A stretch of 64,000 bases of DNA, from NCBI GenBank assembly GCA_041557595.1, contig JBFFGE010000001.1, forward strand, positions 934 to 64,933, written 5' to 3'. The stretch comes from Alphaproteobacteria bacterium (GTDB lineage: Bacteria > Pseudomonadota > Alphaproteobacteria > UBA8366). The notes beneath the pieces were generated by a model. It was not told the origin of the DNA and did not search any database. It saw only the letters and a list, made by a program, of their open reading frames with translations. A program made the position numbers and the translations under genes. Shown here one piece after another: positions 44,104-53,685 of the stretch. Numbering within the stretch: the stretch's first letter is position 1; every line of letters starts with the position of its first letter.

Positions 44104-45158
44104 GGCACTACTCCCTGTCGCTCGCCACTATACACTTCGCGGCGAATCGGTTCCCACCAGTCTCGGCGGTCAATATACCACTGCACGGTATCCCGCAGCC
44201 CGGCGTCGAAATTGCGCCGCGCCCGCCATCCGAGTTCCGCCGCCAATTTCGCGGCATCCACCGCATAGCGGACGTCATGGCCGGGCCGGTCCTCGACGAA
44301 GGCGATCAGCGACGCATGCGGAAAATGCGGCGACGACGCCCGCATCGCGTCGAGACAGGCGCAGATCGCGTGCACCAGATCGACATTCCGCAGCACCGTG
44401 CCGCCGCCGACATTGTAGACCTCGCCCGGCGTGCCTTGCGTCAGGATGCGGTGCAACGCTTCGGCATGATCCTCCACATGCAGCCAATCGCGCTCCTGCA
44501 GGCCATCGCCGTAGATCGGCATCGACTGGCCGTCCAGCGCGGCCAGAATCATTGTCGGTATGACTTTTTCGGGAAACTGATAGGGGCCGTAATTGTTGCA
44601 GCAATTGCTCGTCACGACCGGCAGCCCATAGGTACGAAACCAGGCCCGCGCCAGATGATCCGCCCCGGCCTTGGTCGCCGCATAGGGCGAATTGGGGCGA
44701 TACGGCGCGCGCTCATCGGCCACCGCACCGCCCGCGCCGAGATCGCCGTAGACTTCGTCCGTCGAGACGTGCAGAAACCGGAAACCATCCCGCCGCGCCG
44801 GCGGCAATCCGCCATAATAGGCCCGCGCCGCTTCGAGCAGCGTATAGGTGCCGACGAGATTGGTTTGCACGAAATCCGCCGGCCCGTCGATCGAACGATC
44901 GACATGCGATTCCGCGGCCAGATGCATCACGGCATCCGGCGCGTGGCGGTCGAAGATCCGCGCCACCACCGCCGCGTCGCAGATATCCGCATGTTCGAAG
45001 GCATGCCGGGGCGACTCCATGACATCGGCGAGCGACTGGCGCCGCCCGGCATAGGTCAACTTGTCCAGCGTCACCACCGACGCCTGCGCATCCTGCACGA
45101 GATGGCGCACCACCGCCGATCCGATGAATCCCGCGCCCCCGGTAACGAGAATCTTCAT
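44100..45158 (-). CDS. rfbB: dTDP-glucose 4,6-dehydratase
   Basis: ORF trimmed to [29 protein letters not shown] (YxxxK), [14 protein letters not shown]. Confidence 0.9.
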
Positions 45159-45357
45159 CCCACCTGCATCGGCCATCCCGCGCCGGGGGTCAAGAGCGAA
45201 ACGCGGCCCGGGCAGGCCCCCGCCTATTGTCATCCCGGCATCGAGCGGGCACGATTTGCCGGCATGGCGAAACCGCCACGCACACTCCAACCGTGCACTC
45301 ACAACGCATTCGAAACCCGCCTTCCGGCGGCGGACATCCCGAGAGCCGCAAAATGCC

Positions 45358-46596
45358 ATGTTGAAATTCGATCCGGACAAGAAAGGCCCGCTGGACGGTC
45401 TGCGCATTCTGGACCTGTCGCGTCTGGTCGCCGGCAATATGCTGTCCTTGCAACTCGCGGATTTCGGCGCCGAGGTCATCAAGATCGAAACGCCGCCGCG
45501 CGGCGATCCCCTGCGCGACTGGGCGGCGGACGGCGTTCAATTGCATTGGAAGGTCTATTGCCGCAACAAGAAGAGCATCGGCCTGAATCTGCGCGAGGCG
45601 GAGGGCCGCGACGTGCTGCTGCGGCTGATCGAGACCGCCGACGGCATGATCGAGAACTTCCGGCCCGGCACGCTGGAAAAAATGGGCCTGGGTCCCGATG
45701 TCCTGCTGAAACGCAACCCGCGCCTGGTGCTGGCGCGGCTGTCCGGTTTCGGTCAAACCGGCCCCTATCGCCACAAGCCGGGATTCGGCACGCTGGTCGA
45801 GGGCATGTCCGGTTTTGCCGCGCGCAACGGCTTTCCGGACCGGCCGCCCTTGCTGCCGCCGCTCGCGCTCGCCGATATGATCGCCGGCCTGTCCGGCGCG
45901 ATGTCGGTCGTGATCGCCTTCTATCACCGGGACCTGAAGGGCGGCAGCGGGCAGGTGATCGACCTGTCGCTGCTCGAGCCGATCCATTCTGTGCTCGGCC
46001 CGGAAGCCGCCAATTATCGGCTGACCGGCGAAATCAAGCCGCGCGTGGGCAACGGTTCGAATACCGCATCGCCACGCAACGTCTATGTCACCAGCGACGG
46101 CAAGTTCGTCGCCATTTCCGCCTCGATGCAGGTGATGGCAGAGCGTTTGCTGCGGGCGATCGGCGCCGGCGACATGCTGGACGATCCGCGCTATGCGACC
46201 AACGCGGCCCGGGTCCGGCACCGTGACGAAGTCGATGCGGTCGTCGGCGGCTGGATCGCGCAGCGCACGCTGGTCGACGCGCTCGCCTTTTTCGAGAAGG
46301 AGAGCGTGACCGCCGCGCCGATCTACGATCCGAGCCAGACGGCGGAGGACCCGCATTTCAAGGAACGGCAAATCATCATCGATGTCGAAGACGCGGAGCT
46401 CGGCGAAATTCCGATGCACAACGTGGTGCCGAAACTATCCGGCACGCCGGGCACCTTCCGGCACCCGGCGCCGCATATCGGCGAACACAATGAAAGCTTC
46501 TTGACGGAAATCGGCCTCGATGCCGACGCAATCGATGCCCTGGCGGGCAAGGGCGTCGTGTGGAGCCACGACAATCGAAAGGACCAAAAGACATGA
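45358..46596 (+). CDS. family III (CaiB/BaiF) CoA-transferase
   Basis: ORF trimmed to [38 protein letters not shown]. Confidence 0.9.
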
Positions 46597-47501
46597 CGAC
46601 ACCCTCGCAACAGGCACGGCCGGTATGGCGCTCGCTGATGTTCGTTCCCGTGAATGTGGAACGCTTCGTCGCCAAGGCGCATACCCGCGGCGCCGACGCC
46701 GTCCAGCTCGACCTGGAAGACAGCGTGCCGCTGGCCGACAAGGCGACCGCGCGGAACATGGTGCAGGACGCCGCCAAGACCGTGTCGCAGGCCGGCGCCG
46801 ACGTGGTGGTGCGCATCAACCAGCCGCTGCGTCTGGCCATCCCGGACCTGGAAGCCTCGGTCTCGCCGCTGGTGCAGGCGATCACGCTGCCGAAAGTGGA
46901 CAGCGCCAGCCATATCCGCCTGCTCGCCGAAATGGTTGACGAGCTGGAGGCGGAGCGCGGCATGACGCCGGGCCATACCCTGTTCATCGCCCTGGTGGAA
47001 ACGGCGGACGCATTTTTCCGGCTGGAGGAGATCGGCAAATCGCATCCGCGCCTGGTCGCCATGGGGTTGGGCGGCGAGGATTTCGCCACCGCGCTCGGCA
47101 TGGAGCCGGAGCCGGACGCCATGCAATACCCGAAACAGCAAACCATCATTGCCGCGCGCGCGGCCGGCATCATCCCGCTCGGCATTATCGGAACGGTGGC
47201 CGACTATTCCGACACCGAGAAGATGCGCGCGATCATCCGCAAGTCGCGGCGCTTCGGGTTCGAGGGGTCGTCCTGCATCCATCCCAGCATCGTGCCGATC
47301 CTGAACGAGGAGTTCCGGCCCAGCGAAAAGGAGGTCTCCGGCGCGCAGCGGATCATCCAGGCGTTCGACGCCGCCATCGCCGACGGCCGCGCCTCGCTGG
47401 AAGTGGACGGCAAGATGATCGACTACCCGATCGTCTACCGCGCGCAACGGGTCCTTGAACTCGATACGGCGATCCGCCAGCGTGAGGCGCGGAACCGGTG
47501 A
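46593..47501 (+). CDS. HpcH/HpaI aldolase / citrate-lyase beta-subunit-like (CitE-like acyl-CoA lyase), copy 1
   Basis: WRSLMFVPVNVERFVAKAH, DAVQLDLEDSV, GGEDF. ATGA overlap with the CoA-transferase gene. Confidence 0.85.
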   Translation: MTTPSQQARPVWRSLMFVPVNVERFVAKAHTRGADAVQLDLEDSVPLADKATARNMVQDAAKTVSQAGADVVVRINQPLRLAIPDLEASVSPLVQAITLPKVDSASHIRLLAEMVDELEAERGMTPGHTLFIALVETADAFFRLEEIGKSHPRLVAMGLGGEDFATALGMEPEPDAMQYPKQQTIIAARAAGIIPLGIIGTVADYSDTEKMRAIIRKSRRFGFEGSSCIHPSIVPILNEEFRPSEKEVSGAQRIIQAFDAAIADGRASLEVDGKMIDYPIVYRAQRVLELDTAIRQREARNR

Positions 47502-47520
47502 CGAACGGATCGTCTCGCCG

Positions 47521-48429
47521 ATGACCGCCCCGAGGACGGGACCCGTCTGGCGGTCGCTGCTCTACGTGCCGGTCAATGTCGAGCGGTATGTCGCCAAGGC
47601 ACATACCCGCGGCGCCGACGCGGTCATTCTGGATCTCGAGGACAGCGTGCCGCTGGCCGCCAAGCGCGAAGCGCGCGGGATGGTGCAGGAAGCGGCGGGG
47701 CGCGTCTCGCGCGACGGCGCGGATGTCGTGGTCCGGATCAACCGGCCTTTGCAGCATGCGGTGCCCGACATCGAAGCCTGCATCTCGACCGCCATCTCCA
47801 CCCTGTGGATTGCGAAGACCGCGAGCGCCAGCCATATCCGGCTGATCGCCGAATTGGTGGACGAGCTGGAAGCCGAGCGCGGCATCCCCTTGGGTCATAC
47901 GCGGCTGATCGCCCAGATCGAGACAGCGGACGCGTTCCACGCCATGCGCGAAACCGCGGCCGCCCACCACCGCATCGTCGCCATGGGGCTGGGCAGCGAG
48001 GATTTTGCATTGTCGCTCGGCATGGAGCCGCGGCCCGACGCCTTCCGGACGCCGAAGCAGGAAGCCCTGATCGCCGCGCGCGCCGCCAAGGTCACACCGT
48101 TGGGGCTGATCGGCTCGGTAGCGGATTTCTCGGACCTCACCGAAATGCGGCGAATTCTGGAGACGTCCCAACGCTTCGGCTTCGAAGGCGCGGCCTGCAT
48201 CCACCCCGCGGTCGTGCCGATCCTGAACGAGGTGTTCAGCCCGACCGAGCCCGAGGTCGCCGCCGCCAAGCGCATCGTCGACGCCTTCGAGGCCGCCGTC
48301 GCCGACGGCCGCGCCTCGCTGGAAGTGGACGGCAAGATGATCGACTACCCGGTCGTCGCCCGCGCCGAACAAGTGATCGCGCGCGACGAAGCGATCCGCC
48401 GGCGCGCCGCGCACACGGCCAAACTTTAA
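47521..48429 (+). CDS. CitE-like acyl-CoA lyase, copy 2 (tandem paralogue)
   Basis: WRSLLYVPVNVERYVAKAH, DAVILDLEDSV, GSEDF. Collinear with copy 1, including the shared C-terminus ADGRASLEVDGKMIDYP. Confidence 0.85.
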   Translation: MTAPRTGPVWRSLLYVPVNVERYVAKAHTRGADAVILDLEDSVPLAAKREARGMVQEAAGRVSRDGADVVVRINRPLQHAVPDIEACISTAISTLWIAKTASASHIRLIAELVDELEAERGIPLGHTRLIAQIETADAFHAMRETAAAHHRIVAMGLGSEDFALSLGMEPRPDAFRTPKQEALIAARAAKVTPLGLIGSVADFSDLTEMRRILETSQRFGFEGAACIHPAVVPILNEVFSPTEPEVAAAKRIVDAFEAAVADGRASLEVDGKMIDYPVVARAEQVIARDEAIRRRAAHTAKL

Positions 48430-48439
48430 GCGAGGGAAC

Positions 48440-49090
48440 ATGGACGATCCGGTACAAAGACACCCGACGCGGGCGGAACAGCTCGACATTCTGGCGACCG
48501 TCGTGGCCGACAATTTTACGGCGGATGATCGCCTGCTCGATCTCGGCGTGGGCGTCGGATACGTCGCCCACCTGATCTTCGCAAAGCAGCCCGCCACTAC
48601 GATTATCGGCGTGGACCGCAAGTCGGACGCGTTGTCCAGCGCACAAGAATCGTTCCCGAATTTCGACCTCACCTGCATCGAGGGCGACCTGGAGGCGATT
48701 GCGGACATCGCGATCCCGGCCGGCCCCTACAAGGCGATCTACAGCGCGCTCACCTTTCACGATCTGACCGATGCGGCAAAACAGTCGGTCATCGGATGGG
48801 CCGCGGCGCATTTGGCGCCGGGCGGGTTCTTCCTGCTGTACGACCGGCTGCGCATGACCGATGCGGCGCTGTTTCCGCTGCAGCAAAGCATCTGGGCGCG
48901 GATCGAGAAGGAATACGGTACGGGCATGCGGTCGGCGCCCGACTACGCGGCCTACCTGACCGATCTCGGCACCGACAACCGGCCGGCCGGTCTCGACGAC
49001 TACCAAAAATGGTTTGCCGAGGCGGGGCTGGCCTTTCAGATCCTTCATCTGCACGGCAATATCGCCCTGATGGCTGGTGGCAATCGGTAA
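48440..49090 (+). CDS. class I SAM-dependent methyltransferase
   Basis: LLDLGVGVGY motif I, 216 aa. Confidence 0.75.
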   Translation: MDDPVQRHPTRAEQLDILATVVADNFTADDRLLDLGVGVGYVAHLIFAKQPATTIIGVDRKSDALSSAQESFPNFDLTCIEGDLEAIADIAIPAGPYKAIYSALTFHDLTDAAKQSVIGWAAAHLAPGGFFLLYDRLRMTDAALFPLQQSIWARIEKEYGTGMRSAPDYAAYLTDLGTDNRPAGLDDYQKWFAEAGLAFQILHLHGNIALMAGGNR

Positions 49091-49138: not shown

Positions 49139-49552
49139 ATGGCCGACCGTCCGAAGCCGTTCAACGGCATCCGCCACATCGCCCTCGAAGTACCGAATTT
49201 GGAGGAATGCGAGCGGTTCTATACCGACATCATGGGCATGAAAATGCTCAGCCGTCCGCACGAGAATTTGGTCTATCTGACGTGCGGCAACGACAATCTG
49301 TCACTGTCCCGCGCCAAATCGGCGACCGAAGACGGCGGTTGCATGGACCATTTCGGCTTCATCGTCGATACGAAGGAAGAGCTTGAGGACTGGTTCGCCT
49401 TCATGAAGGCCCGATCCGTCCCTCTGCTCGACACGCCGACCGATCATGGCGACGGTGCGCGCAGCTTTCATTGCAAGGATCCGGCGGGCAACGTTATCCA
49501 GCCGCTGTTCCACCCGGCCATTTCCGGCCAGCGGTTCACACCGGCCGGCTAG
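49139..49552 (+). CDS. VOC-family protein
   Basis: 137 aa with IRHIALEVPN and HFGF. Confidence 0.8.
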   Translation: MADRPKPFNGIRHIALEVPNLEECERFYTDIMGMKMLSRPHENLVYLTCGNDNLSLSRAKSATEDGGCMDHFGFIVDTKEELEDWFAFMKARSVPLLDTPTDHGDGARSFHCKDPAGNVIQPLFHPAISGQRFTPAG

Positions 49553-49669: not shown

Positions 49670-50503
49670 CTAGAACGGCACCTCGCCTTCCAGAATGATG
49701 CGGTGCATGACGCGGCCCGCCGCATGATCGTAATCGTCATAGGCGAGATGGAGCACGGCGCGGTTGTCGCATAGCAGCACGTCGCCGACCCGCCATTTGT
49801 GGCGATAGGTCACCGCCGGCTTGATCGTCTTGTCCAGAATATCGTTCAAGAATTTCTGACTTTCCGCCCAATCCATATTACCGACCCGGTCGGTCTTGCC
49901 CGGATGGAAATACAGCGCCTTCTTTCCGCTATCCGGATGTGTCCGCACCAGCGGATGGATTTGCGGCGCGCCGAACTTCTTCCGGTCTTCCGCGCTGACA
50001 TAGTCATGGTCTTCGATCTTGTTGACCGTCTTCAGGGTCGCCAATTCATCCTGCTCCGCCTTCGGCAAGGCGGCATAGGCGGCCTGCATGTTGGCGAAGC
50101 CCGTGTCCCCACCGGATTTCGGCAGCGATACGGCATACAGCACGGTAGTCTTCGGCGGCCGCGCGTGATTGGTATGATCGGTGTGCCAAGCCCGCGAGCC
50201 GGTCGCCGCCTTGATCCCATCCGGTCCGGCGATGGTCTTGCGGCTGTCGAGCACGGCGATTTCCGGATGGTCGTCCATCAGCATGTCGGAGAGATGCTGC
50301 GGCATCGTATCGCCGAATAATCGGGCGGCGGCGAGGTACTGTTCCGGGTTCAGTTTCTGGTCCCGCACCACCATCACCAGATGATCCGCTTGGGCGCGCT
50401 TCATCGCGGCAAGGTCGTCCGGGTCGACCGGACGCGACAGGTCGACGCCGGTCACCTCGACGCCCAACGCATCCGACAACGGTTTAATCGATACTGTCAC
50501 CAT
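49670..50503 (-). CDS. TauD/TfdA-family Fe(II)/2-oxoglutarate dioxygenase (paralogue 4)
   Basis: GVEVTGVDLS, WHTDHTN (HxD), NRAVLHLA. GGAGG ribosome-binding site. Confidence 0.85.
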   Translation of the reverse strand: MVTVSIKPLSDALGVEVTGVDLSRPVDPDDLAAMKRAQADHLVMVVRDQKLNPEQYLAAARLFGDTMPQHLSDMLMDDHPEIAVLDSRKTIAGPDGIKAATGSRAWHTDHTNHARPPKTTVLYAVSLPKSGGDTGFANMQAAYAALPKAEQDELATLKTVNKIEDHDYVSAEDRKKFGAPQIHPLVRTHPDSGKKALYFHPGKTDRVGNMDWAESQKFLNDILDKTIKPAVTYRHKWRVGDVLLCDNRAVLHLAYDDYDHAAGRVMHRIILEGEVPF

Positions 50504-50573
50504 AGCCTCCTAACCGGCCCCATTCCGAACCGCATCCAACGTGAACGCCAACAATAGTTAAATGAGCGGGTCA

Positions 50574-51920
50574 TTACCACTCGATGCGTTCGTAAATTTG
50601 GCGGAGCCGACGGCCGCATCCGGGATTCACGTTCTCGGCCCAGGTGACGCGGCCATTGAGATGCGCCCGGAAATCGGCGTGTCCGTTCCGGTTTTGGCTC
50701 TCCGGGCCATGTCGGCGGCAGTTGAACAAAGTCGTCTTGAGCGTGTCGAAATCGGCCCGGGGCAGATTGACATGTTCGTTGACGACCAATCCGGTGACGC
50801 GCTGACACCCGCTGCGCCGCATAATACGTGTCTTGCCGCCATTCAGGGCATAGCCCTCGTCGCGGACAATGGCCTCGACGGAGGCCAGAAACCGCCTTAT
50901 TCGCAGGGCAAAGTCGCGGTCGCCGGAAAACGTCAGGTCATCCGCATAGCGCGTGTAATTGGCGTTCAGGCGGCGCGCGAGGCCACCTATCCTGCTGTCG
51001 AGCCGCCACGAACATAGATTGGCGAGGGCCGGCGACGTCGGCGCGCCCTGCGGCAAATGCGGCGCCTGAAACCGATCGCGCGCCGCCCAGGCAGCTTGCC
51101 GGGACACCGGCAGATCGTCGAATGCCGCATCCGGCGTGGCGGTCGCGCACAGACCGGTCAAGAGGCGCGCGACAGGCCACGGGTATCCGGCACATCGAAA
51201 GACCCCGTGCACCCGATTGAGCGGCGTGTTCAGGAAATTGAGCGGCGTGTTCAGGAAATAGTCCTTCAAATCGACGGTTGCGACGATGCTTTCGCCCGCA
51301 TGCGCCTGGGCGGCGCTGAGGCAGGACTGTCCCCGAACGAAGCCATGGGCGCGTTCATGCGCGGGAATATGGTTCAAGATTTCATCGAGAATTTTCCGCT
51401 GAATAGCCTTTAACCGACACTTCGGCGCTTCGATCAAACGCGGCTCGCCGGATTTCTTCGGCCGCCAGACATAGGCGTAATGCTGCAAGCTCGGATCGGT
51501 CGCATGGCCATGTTGCCGCTTCCCGTCCGCATACCATTCGAGATGCGGCAAGGATACGTCCAGCCAGGCCGCGAGATCGCGCGGCGTGACAAGTTTCGGC
51601 AGAGGCGCGTGACATTCGGGCAGGACCAGCGCGAATCCAGGCGATCGCAGCGTCGGCTGGACGATGCGCACACCCTGTCGGGCCGGGAGCGAGGCTTGTT
51701 CGAACGCCAGGGAACCGAGAATGAGCTCGACCAGGCGGCGCGGCGGCGGCGGATAGGGCGTGACGTTCCCGTCCAGGACGTCGTCGATAACCGCGCGCAG
51801 CGGCTTCCGCAAACCGCGGCCCAGCGCGTTTTCCGCGCGACGCAGCATGGCGCCCTTTGTCCAGACGCCGGCCAGGAGCGCCTCGGCCAAACGCTTGGCG
51901 ATCTGCTTTCTCCCGGCCAT
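50574..51920 (-). CDS. retron-type reverse transcriptase (RNA-directed DNA polymerase)
   Basis: In order: GFVRGQS, AAQAH (in place of NAxxH), VDLKDYF, LPQGAPTSPALANL, RYADDLTFS (YADD at 50937..50948), QRVTGLVVN (VTG). ATG 51920 has GAGG 8 nt upstream (the track start at 51929 is GTG). Confidence 0.85.
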   Translation of the reverse strand: MAGRKQIAKRLAEALLAGVWTKGAMLRRAENALGRGLRKPLRAVIDDVLDGNVTPYPPPPRRLVELILGSLAFEQASLPARQGVRIVQPTLRSPGFALVLPECHAPLPKLVTPRDLAAWLDVSLPHLEWYADGKRQHGHATDPSLQHYAYVWRPKKSGEPRLIEAPKCRLKAIQRKILDEILNHIPAHERAHGFVRGQSCLSAAQAHAGESIVATVDLKDYFLNTPLNFLNTPLNRVHGVFRCAGYPWPVARLLTGLCATATPDAAFDDLPVSRQAAWAARDRFQAPHLPQGAPTSPALANLCSWRLDSRIGGLARRLNANYTRYADDLTFSGDRDFALRIRRFLASVEAIVRDEGYALNGGKTRIMRRSGCQRVTGLVVNEHVNLPRADFDTLKTTLFNCRRHGPESQNRNGHADFRAHLNGRVTWAENVNPGCGRRLRQIYERIEW

Positions 51921-51966
51921 TCGCTTCACCTCGACGATTGCAATGAGAGGCGGCGGAGCGCTTCAA

Positions 51967-52120
51967 CCCGACGTGTCAGGCATTACCATCCCTGGGTGCA
52001 GCCCAGGGGCGGTCATACAGTGCAATACTGTATCGCGTTACTGCCCTGGGGTAGTCCCAGAGCTCCCGGGATACACCGAAGTGACAACCCAGGATTGCTT
52101 GAAACGTCCGCCACGCCGGA
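51967..52120 (-). ncRNA. candidate retron msr-msd non-coding RNA (hand-predicted, unverified)
   Basis: Imperfect terminal inverted repeat: UCCGGCGUGGCGG (52120..52108) pairs with CCUGACACGUCGGG (51980..51967), giving 9 Watson-Crick pairs, 3 G-U pairs and 1 mismatch. It encloses a 69-nt nested hairpin (51992..52060). It ends 37 nt before the GTG at 51929 (46 nt before ATG 51920). Confidence 0.35.
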
Positions 52121-52123
52121 TCG

Positions 52124-52151
52124 AGTGTAAGGGGCCGCCGTAAACTGTCAA
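52124..52151 (-). promoter_or_regulatory. candidate sigma70-type promoter for the ncRNA/RT transcript
   Basis: Minus strand TTGACA (52151..52146), 16-nt spacer, TACACT (52129..52124). The predicted start falls at the first bases of the candidate a1 repeat. Confidence 0.4.
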
Positions 52152-52319: not shown

Positions 52320-52348
52320 TTGACTCGTTTCGGGCGCCGGTTTACATA
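52320..52348 (+). promoter_or_regulatory. candidate sigma70-type promoter of the metZ leader
   Basis: TTGACT (52320..52325), 17-nt spacer, TACATA (52343..52348). The predicted start lies just before the riboswitch-like element. Confidence 0.4.
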
Positions 52349-52349
52349 G

Positions 52350-52420
52350 ATTGGCACGTGGTGATTTGGCCCGACCGGCTTGCGGCCACGGTAAATAATT
52401 CAGCTAAAAGGTCGGAGCGT
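52350..52420 (+). ncRNA. SAM-II/SAM-V-like riboswitch candidate in the metZ leader
   Basis: GUGAUUUGGC ... CCGaCCG-GCUUG-CGGccaCGG hairpin ... CAGCUAAAAGG. UUUGGC (52365..52370) can pair with GCUAAA (52403..52408) as an H-type pseudoknot. Its position upstream of a methionine-biosynthesis gene fits an alphaproteobacterial-type context. Confidence 0.5.
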
Positions 52421-52430
52421 CCCAGTGGAG

Positions 52431-52460
52431 CCCTGACCTGTTTTGGTCGGGGATTTTTTA
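52431..52460 (+). terminator. leader attenuator/terminator hairpin
   Basis: CCCTGACC-tgtttt-GGTCGGGG (8 bp including one G-U) followed by ATTTTTTA. The upstream GGTCGG (52410..52415) can alternatively pair with the left arm. Confidence 0.55.
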
Positions 52461-52488
52461 TGCCGGCGTGGCCGGCAAGGAGGACGCG

Positions 52489-53685
52489 ATGAAGAACACC
52501 CATCAGTCCCGCAAGGATAACTGGCGGCCCCAGACGAAATTGGTACGGGGCGGGCTCGACCGGACGCAGCATCGGGAGACGGCGGAGGCGCTGTTTCTCA
52601 CCTCGGGCTTCGTCTACGACCAGGCGGAGGACGCCGAGGCCGCCTTCAAGGGCGAAACCGACCGATTCATCTACACGCGCTACGGCAACCCGACCGTCGC
52701 CTCTTTCGAGGAACGGCTGCGGTTGCTCGAAGGCGCCGAATTCTGTTCGGCGACGGCGAGCGGCATGTCAGCGGTCTTCACCGCGTTGATCGGTTTGCTC
52801 AAGGCCGGCGACCGCGTCGTCGCATCGCGCGCTTTATTCGGCTCCTGCCATTACATCATCAGCGAATTGCTGCCGCGGTTCGGAGTCGAGACCGAATTCG
52901 TCGACGGCACGGATCCGGCGCAATGGGAAAAGGCGCTGTCGAAGCCGGCCCAATGCGTCTTCCTCGAATCCCCCTCGAACCCGACGCTCGAGATCATCGA
53001 CATCGAGCGGATCGCCGAGCTGACCCATGCGGCGGGAGGCAAGCTCGTGGTCGACAACGTGCTGGCCACGCCGATTCTGCAGAAGCCGCTGGAACTGGGC
53101 GCCGACATCGTCGTCTATTCCGCGACCAAGCATATCGACGGGCAGGGCCGCGCGCTGGCCGGCGCGATCCTCGGCCCGCAGAGCTATTACGACGATTGCA
53201 TCCAGCCGCTCATGCGCCATACCGGGCCGGCCTGCAGCCCGTTCAACGCCTGGCTCATGCTGAAGGGGCTTGAGACGCTCGAATTGCGCGTCGAGCGGCA
53301 TTGCCGCAACGCGCAAGACGTCGCCGAATTCCTGCAGACCCTGCCGGGCGTGACGCGCGTGATCTATCCCGGGCTGAAAAGCCATCCGCAACACGATCTC
53401 GCCGCGCGCCAGATGGCCAAACCCGGCACGGTCCTGGCGTTCGAGGTCGAGGGCGGCAAGGAGCGCGCCTTCCGCATCCAGAATGCGCTGGAGGTGATCG
53501 ATATCTCGAACAATCTCGGCGACACCAAGAGCATCGTCACCCACCCCTCAACCACGACGCATCAACGCCTGCCCGAGGAGGAGCGCCAACGGCTCGGCAT
53601 CGGCGAAGGTTTGCTGCGCCTGTCGGTCGGGCTGGAGGATGTCGAGGATATCAAGGAAGATTTGGCCCGCGCCCTCGCCCTTTGA
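52489..53685 (+). CDS. metZ: O-succinylhomoserine sulfhydrylase
   Basis: ORF trimmed to MKNTH (AAGGAGG ribosome-binding site). YTRYGNPT, SATKHIDGQG (PLP lysine). Confidence 0.9.
   Translation: MKNTHQSRKDNWRPQTKLVRGGLDRTQHRETAEALFLTSGFVYDQAEDAEAAFKGETDRFIYTRYGNPTVASFEERLRLLEGAEFCSATASGMSAVFTALIGLLKAGDRVVASRALFGSCHYIISELLPRFGVETEFVDGTDPAQWEKALSKPAQCVFLESPSNPTLEIIDIERIAELTHAAGGKLVVDNVLATPILQKPLELGADIVVYSATKHIDGQGRALAGAILGPQSYYDDCIQPLMRHTGPACSPFNAWLMLKGLETLELRVERHCRNAQDVAEFLQTLPGVTRVIYPGLKSHPQHDLAARQMAKPGTVLAFEVEGGKERAFRIQNALEVIDISNNLGDTKSIVTHPSTTTHQRLPEEERQRLGIGEGLLRLSVGLEDVEDIKEDLARALAL

Follow-up and report, generated by a model that had tools for sequence, protein, structure and literature searches.

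In a stretch of 64,000 nucleotides from an alphaproteobacterial contig (JBFFGE010000001.1, positions 934 to 64,933 of the forward strand, henceforth termed the window), we have characterized a gene encoding a retron-type reverse transcriptase (RT) together with the RNA element that precedes it. The open reading frame (ORF) of the RT is located on the minus strand and encompasses 451 residues if read from a GTG (50574-51929) or 448 residues if initiated at an ATG at position 51920, which is the likely start because homologues begin at MAGRKQ. Directly upstream, we found a predicted non-coding RNA (ncRNA) of the retron type and a promoter-like site, neither of which was part of the preliminary description of the locus, as was also the case for a 21-bp duplication within the RT gene. 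This description had placed the RT between genes coding for a TauD/TfdA dioxygenase and a VOC protein on one side and metZ on the other, with no canonical effector, defence or mobility gene nearby, and both statements were borne out. The flanking genes are as described (Table 1), all ORFs between 44 and 58 kb of the window are metabolic and a comparison of PADLOC models with the flanking proteins returned no defence match, except for a weak generic methyltransferase similarity of the ORF at 48440-49090.

Table 1. Features of the retron locus and its immediate flanks, with positions referring to the window.
Feature	Position	Strand	Evidence or remark
Retron RT, 448 residues	50574..51920	-	PADLOC, PDB sequence and Foldseek matches, AlphaFold2 model, dN/dS
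Family-specific N-terminal five-helix domain of the RT, about residues 1-90	51660..51920	-	Family conservation, AlphaFold2 model
Perfect 21-bp tandem duplication, in-frame insertion of seven residues (LNTPLNF)	51216..51259	-	Tandem Repeats Finder: period 21, 2.1 copies, 100% match
Predicted retron ncRNA (msr-msd), a2 to a1, ~165 nt	51950..52114	-	Covariance model, covariation, position ahead of the RT
a1 inverted repeat, 3' arm of the closing stem, UUGAAGCGCUCCGCCGC	51950..51966	-	Pairs with a2
msd stem-loop, template of the predicted msDNA	51980..52018	-	Helices 3-5
Conserved msr hairpin CUCUGGGACUACCCCAGGG, likely RT recognition element	52044..52062	-	Near-invariant columns, n=48
Variable msr hairpin	52064..52095	-	Folds as hairpin in the window
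Candidate branching G, in CAAGC after a2	52098	-	Near-invariance and opposing G
a2 inverted repeat, 5' arm of the closing stem, GUGGCGGACGUUUCAA	52099..52114	-	Helix 1 pairing
Putative sigma-70-like promoter TTGACA-N16-TACACT	52124..52151	-	Upstream of msr-msd-RT; 10/12 consensus matches
VOC/glyoxalase gene	49139..49552	+	
TauD/TfdA dioxygenase gene	49670..50503	-	
SAM_alpha riboswitch (RF00521)	52348..52427	+	63 bits
Terminator-like hairpin after the riboswitch	52431..52452		
Cys/Met PLP enzyme gene (metZ-like)	52468..53685	+	

The protein resembles retron RTs more than any other class of RT. It carries the RT motifs AAQAH, VDLKDYF, LPQGAPTSPALANL, RYADDLTFS and QRVTGLVVN in this order, followed by the C-terminal tail, as initially proposed, and it matches the Pfam family RVT_1 with an E-value of 2e-20. 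In PADLOC, the best match is to the model RT_other (PDLC02949, 488 bits, 1e-146), followed by RT_outgroup (PDLC03740, described as 'retron', 460 bits, 2e-138), both of which cover the full length of the protein, and by RT_XIII, which aligns to residues 109-449 only (299 bits), with other retron RT models coming behind. Among the matches listed (25 of 56), all are retron RT models. The same ranking, with RT_other ahead of RT_outgroup and RT_XIII far below, was obtained for eight diverse members of the RT family, with the highest scores in Actinobacteria. A sequence search of the PDB places retron RTs in the top 14 positions (Ec86 with 1e-25, followed by Ec67, Ec78, Ec83 and Eco8), whereas a group II maturase is only found at 5e-05. 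An AlphaFold2 model calculated from an alignment of 78 sequences shows a mean predicted local distance difference test (pLDDT) score of 84.5. In Foldseek, the first 18 proteins that it retrieves are all retron RTs, and proteins of the G2L4, group II, diversity-generating retroelement (DGR), DRT and AbiK classes rank lower. The YADD and VTG motifs are invariant across the 78 family members. The assignment of AAQAH to the NAxxH position of region X holds in part: the motif is present, but the family retains only A207 and H210 (xAxxH) with the N being replaced. Similarly, the C-terminal tail noticed earlier is found in the protein, but a specific likeness to the tail of Ec86 did not emerge, with the phmmer alignment to the Ec78 RT reaching residue 446 and the best stretch against the Ec86 RT ending at residue 401.

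An alignment of the region upstream of the RT with the equivalent regions of two syntenic relatives revealed a sharply conserved block just 5' of the gene. Within this block, the a2-to-a1 stretch of the ncRNA is identical to its counterparts at 94.5% and 88.5% of positions, which is at the level of the adjacent riboswitch preceding the metZ-like gene, whereas the identity decreases to only 70% and 54% in the spacer between the block and the riboswitch. Folding of the whole 418-nt intergenic region had given a mixed and uninformative picture until the conserved block was delimited from relatives, and the conservation among three close relatives was too high for their consensus fold to reveal covariation. 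Iterated nhmmer searches seeded with the block recovered an element of about 180 nt on the strand of the RT in 81 of 83 non-redundant sequences, which ends 10-40 nt ahead of the RT start; in the window, the gap between a1 and the RT is about 30 nt. We aligned 48 of these elements (alignment A4) and derived their structure with RNAalifold. The resulting arrangement consists of a closing stem formed by a2 and a1, a CAAGC sequence, a variable hairpin, a near-invariant hairpin and a long interrupted hairpin. The upstream RNA, as predicted from this alignment, thus shows the canonical msr-msd layout described in Mestre et al. (2020), where retron ncRNAs with two opposing Gs are also documented.

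The predicted structure is strongly supported by covariation. In alignment A4, 94.8% of the cells are paired, and both partners have changed in 28 of the 36 pairs. Shuffling (500 replicates) never attained such values on any of five measures, and slid controls were paired to 40-48%. Compensatory changes are found in 13 of the 15 pairs of helix 1, which connects a2 and a1, and in 12 of the 13 pairs of helices 3-5, which constitute the msd stem-loop. Helix 2, the conserved msr hairpin with the consensus CUCUGGGGUUACCCCAGGG, is paired to 98.4%, with most of its columns being invariant in the 48 sequences. The variable msr hairpin differs in length and sequence across the family, which renders it unalignable, and it was left out of the pair counts. 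Positions A35, A36 and G37 of the alignment, which belong to the CAAGC following a2, are nearly invariant, and an invariant G at position 51967, preceding a1, sits opposite to the G at 52098, at which branching would presumably occur. The reverse-transcribed stretch would then extend roughly from 51967 to about 52040.

A covariance model built on this alignment (R1) detects one strong site in the window, at 51941-52134 of the minus strand (120 bits, E 1e-29), whose sequence is part of the training set, and a 15-bit echo on the opposite strand of the same palindromic locus. The reverse-strand matches of nhmmer and cmsearch at the msd stem-loop likewise reflect its palindromic nature. When applied to 36 held-out loci, the model finds the element immediately 5' of the RT in 34 of them, with the other two contigs beginning inside the RT gene. 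It describes one conserved ncRNA family over all loci. A search of Rfam, in both its E-value and gathering modes, did not identify any retron msr family and returned the SAM_alpha riboswitch as its sole hit.

The promoter-like sequence ahead of a2 is the sole site of its kind between positions 50400 and 52500 and would be appropriately positioned to drive expression of msr-msd-RT. Its -10-like TAnnnT is nearly invariant among the 48 members of alignment A4, and its identity to the two close relatives amounts to 93% and 86%, whereas the spacer that lies upstream of it reaches only 70% and 54%.

The preliminary description had considered the element to be a degenerate or orphan retron, and the comparison with the syntenic relatives speaks against decay. 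The ratio of non-synonymous to synonymous substitution rates (dN/dS) of the RT is 0.12 and 0.16 with respect to these two sequences, at dS values of 0.40 and 0.66. It ranges from 0.09 to 0.13 in the RT core and is about 0.22 in the N-terminal 150 residues. These low values, together with an ncRNA and a promoter that have diverged far less than the neutral spacer, argue against a degenerate element, and both RT and ncRNA are under purifying selection.

We then turned to the genomic neighbourhoods of the RT family, for which ORFs of at least 90 residues located within 6 kb of the RT were clustered in 84 loci. These loci cover at least seven phyla and originate from Alpha-, Beta- and Gammaproteobacteria, Acidobacteriota, Planctomycetota, Actinomycetota, Myxococcota, Verrucomicrobiota and a metagenome-assembled genome labelled Flavobacteriaceae. 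Apart from the RT itself and spurious overlapping ORFs, every cluster is confined to at most six loci, and the few most frequent clusters are transporters or regulators found at variable distance and orientation. There is also no conserved small ORF of 30-120 residues within 1.5 kb of the RT in the loci of the family. Clusters of apparently conserved ORFs at the RT were rejected, since they consist of antisense or alternative-frame ORFs located within the RT gene. Gene-called or annotated examples have housekeeping surroundings, with RTs next to a pseudouridine synthase and mutL (L089), next to polA and rpsA in Tsukamurella, and next to H-NS and a transporter of the major facilitator superfamily (MFS) in Burkholderia. 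Since no neighbour recurs in more than six of the 84 loci, an effector has not been deleted at the locus described here: its absence is a property of the whole RT family. No cognate effector, as it characterizes the tripartite types I-XIII, was found to adjoin or to be fused to the RT, and searches of Pfam, PDB profiles and Foldseek did not identify any known effector domain within the protein.

The family is absent from a phage collection, which contains only distant retron RTs of 27-34% identity, and in a plasmid collection it is confined to non-mobilizable replicons, mostly megaplasmids or chromid-like records. One of the plasmid-labelled records, the Tsukamurella 'plasmid 5' (L092, NZ_LR134447.1), carries polA and rpsA beside the RT and is therefore probably a chromosomal fragment or chromid and not a true plasmid. 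A chromosomal, vertically inherited function seems a more likely role of these elements than that of a mobile defence-island module.

An assignment of the element within the known diversity of retrons was attempted from the ranking of profile matches. Mestre et al. (2020) have found stand-alone (msr-msd)-RT cassettes in clade 11 as well as in the Ec107 branch of clade 2, and have suggested that stand-alone retrons may be domesticated or act with unknown partners in trans. In a survey of SPIRE, a preprint by Toro (2026) describes a group clade11-A, which is enriched in Pseudomonadota, Actinomycetota and Acidobacteriota and shows no recurrent accessory modules. Its Table S1 equates clade11-A and clade11-B with the ncRNA sub-clades 'OutgroupA' and 'OutgroupB', and these labels therefore tie the PADLOC model RT_outgroup to clade 11. 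Table S2 of the same preprint lists Nakamurella and Arthrobacter in clade11-A, genera that are also represented in our set of loci (L012, L020 and L034), and it contains one row of the clade 11 group with MFS_1 and Histone_HNS neighbours, which matches the H-NS and MFS genes next to the RT in Burkholderia. The highest PADLOC scores in Actinobacteria fit a profile dating from a time when clade 11 was 'essentially restricted to Actinobacteria'. With the RT matching both RT_outgroup and RT_other over its full length, the earlier suggestion of an unclassified architecture finds no support.

Together, these results make it likely that the element is a complete and selectively maintained stand-alone retron of the clade 11 ('outgroup') lineage of Mestre et al. 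(2020). Several observations weigh against this interpretation. The RT family does not keep the canonical N of the NAxxH motif, and two changes are unique to the strain, the seven-residue duplication and a G-to-A exchange in the conserved hairpin, each of which could reduce or abolish activity. Membership in clade 11 follows from the ranking of hidden Markov models and an equivalence of names and not from placement in a reference tree, and the multicopy single-stranded DNA (msDNA) of this element is a prediction. Finally, our search of the literature on effector-less retrons, including clade 11, stand-alone and Ec107 or orphan systems, did not find a functional study.

The strain-specific changes could indicate that this particular copy has recently been crippled, with the duplication, the hairpin exchange or both abolishing msDNA synthesis in an incipient pseudogene, while the remainder of the family would be functional. 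Both changes are indeed unique. The duplication is found in none of 18 aligned homologues, and position 52054 on the minus strand is A in the window but G in 47 of 48 family members, which converts a pair at the apex of the hairpin into A-C. The LNTPLNF insertion immediately follows RT motif 1, five residues past the catalytic D220, and its modelled conformation is of low confidence (pLDDT <50 for residues 226-230). The reading frame has nevertheless remained intact and free of stops, and the exact protein containing the duplication was found on five contigs, with the four that are listed originating from four different samples, and it is thus fixed in this population. AlphaFold2 models the insertion as part of a loop at the protein surface that connects a strand to a helix, and the hairpin exchange affects a stem of 8 bp, of which it removes no more than the pair at the apex. 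The dN/dS of 0.12 with respect to the nearest relative also argues against a loss of function, although this value is averaged over the whole time since the two sequences have split. We thus regard a recent inactivation of this copy as improbable.

A second alternative concerns the N-terminal part of the RT. The preliminary description had proposed, in more general terms, that the effector function might reside in the RT itself. The N-terminal region is conserved across the family (alignments A1, A5 and A6), and whereas the profiles RT_other and RT_outgroup include it, RT_XIII does not. It is predicted with high confidence (pLDDT >90 for residues 10-80), and searches did not retrieve any hit in Pfam or PDB profiles at E-values up to 10 and nothing significant in Foldseek, where the best match has an E-value of 0.81. 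If this helical domain acted as effector or sensor, the retron would be self-contained, comparable to types I-C, XI and XII with their RT fusions. Such a role would be in line with the conservation and confident fold of the domain and the purifying selection acting on it (dN/dS about 0.2), with its absence from the effector-linked retron RTs of solved structure, which comprise 310-380 residues, and with the lack of a partner in cis in the neighbourhoods of the family. However, the domain is small and all-helical, and its invariant positions (M4, A11, L14, A15, G21, W23, P63, L66 and F76) are hydrophobic, Gly or Pro, leaving no invariant polar or catalytic residue. It matches neither nuclease, TIR, protease and Toprim nor membrane domains in fold or sequence, and a function in RNA binding or oligomerisation would fit the data equally well. 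An enzymatic effector role of the domain thus finds no support, whereas it may be involved in sensing, RNA binding or oligomerisation, and a self-contained retron of the described kind appears to us quite unlikely.

There is very little to be said for a plain decayed retron, which has lost an adjacent effector in this genome. Most characterised retrons are tripartite (Mestre et al., 2020), and type XIII, the nearest typed clade, has SWIM and HEAT partners, but the neighbourhoods of 84 loci across phyla do not contain a recurrent partner, the syntenic relatives are equally effector-less and the RT and ncRNA are under purifying selection, all of which speaks against homologues that invariably reside next to a known effector. 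That the protein belongs to another class of bacterial RTs, either group II-like, UG/Abi/DRT or DGR, is hardly conceivable: although the NCBIfam retron models score below their cut-offs (retron_St85_RT with 160 compared to 235 bits) and do not permit a classification, and although Rfam holds no matching msr family, the NCBIfam group II and Drt2 scores are far lower, the listed PADLOC matches and the PDB searches of sequence and structure consistently favour retron RTs, and a predicted RNA with the canonical order a2, msr, msd and a1 is located upstream.

For the stand-alone retron that we favour, a mode of action can be proposed from what has been described for characterised retrons. The RT would bind the conserved msr hairpin and use the 2'-OH of G52098 to prime synthesis. 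The msd hairpin would be copied into a short msDNA of roughly 60-75 nt, which would stay bound to the RT. Our best guess is that the resulting RT-msDNA particle acts either via the N-terminal domain of the RT or via an unlinked host factor. A more general proposal, which we put forward as doubtful, is that clade 11 retrons are domesticated, vertically inherited RT-msDNA particles whose output relies either on the family-specific helical domain at the N-terminus, with a fold for which there is no solved relative, or on a host factor encoded elsewhere, in either a self-contained immunity or a role outside defence. If true, this would define a mode of retron action that is distinct from the model of effector sequestration. 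The missing effector is the rule for the clade 11 lineage and neither a local oddity nor a sign of decay. With its own putative promoter, an ncRNA supported by covariation, an RT that is under purifying selection and stable synteny, the locus offers a clean test case for effector-less retrons, in which the duplication of seven residues, as a natural variant, might provide a built-in comparison.

The surroundings of the retron are shared with its closest relatives. In genomes encoding RTs of 89% and 81% identity, the genes follow the same order of metZ, RT, tauD, VOC, methyltransferase and HpcH. The SAM_alpha riboswitch is located upstream of the metZ-like gene in divergent orientation to the retron, and its presence indicates an alphaproteobacterial host. 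A scan of the 64-kb window for tRNAs did not find any. On the other side, the RT stop codon is separated from tauD, which is encoded on the same strand, by only 70 nt (50504-50573), which contain an AGGAGG ribosome-binding site. We did not find a terminator-like site on the minus strand of this interval, and it is possible that transcription from the retron promoter runs on into tauD. In relatives with RTs of 79-81% identity (L081:3780-4766 and a contig of P0004), an extra TauD paralogue of 328-336 residues begins 17-41 nt ahead of the RT stop codon, thus giving rise to overlapping ORFs, whereas this paralogue is not present in the window or in locus L087. An operonic link between RT and tauD was rejected as reflecting local synteny, with TauD not recurring across the wider RT family. 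Further away, the region 45061-48429 of the plus strand contains an ORF of the CoA-transferase family III followed by two tandem paralogues of the HpcH/HpaI type, a classification that refers to Pfam matches of the syntenic genes in L081 and L087 and not of the ORFs of the window. The synteny of this block with the retron locus is kept in both relatives, and its composition suggests an acyl-CoA lyase pathway.

A comparison with known systems places the element among effector-less retrons. Retron-Eco1 (Ec86) of type II-A is the best match of solved structure (27% identity, Foldseek E 1e-18) and agrees with the element in its overall ncRNA layout and in having YADD and VTG motifs, but it employs an N-glycosidase effector resembling nucleoside deoxyribosyltransferases, and its RT of 320 residues lacks the N-terminal domain. 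Type XIII (Mx162, Mx65, Sa163 and Ne144; clade 10) provides the nearest typed RT model, and both type XIII and the family described here have myxobacterial members and show signs of vertical inheritance. Type XIII retrons, however, have their own SWIM zinc-finger/winged-helix and HEAT-repeat partners, which are not found among the neighbour clusters of our loci, and their profile does not cover the N-terminal domain. With RT_XIII as only the third-best model and no SWIM or HEAT cluster in the neighbourhoods, membership in this type was rejected. The Retron-Eco5 (Ec107) branch of clade 2 has in common an effector-less (msr-msd)-RT cassette without link to prophages (Mestre et al., 2020). It differs in belonging to another RT clade, with RT_Ec107-like scoring only 175 bits for the present protein, in its shorter RT without N-terminal domain and in its hosts, which are mostly Gammaproteobacteria in the report of 2020 and Bacillota in that of 2026. 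The closest correspondence is found with the stand-alone retrons of clade 11, with which the element shares the full-length match to RT_outgroup and RT_other, the msr-msd directly upstream of the RT, the lack of a recurrent accessory gene, a spread over Pseudomonadota, Actinomycetota, Acidobacteriota and Planctomycetota and heterogeneous, often housekeeping neighbourhoods. No defining feature sets it apart, the differences being confined to the duplication of seven residues and the single hairpin substitution of this copy. The element is thus an ordinary member of a lineage that has already been catalogued and whose profiles are already contained in PADLOC.

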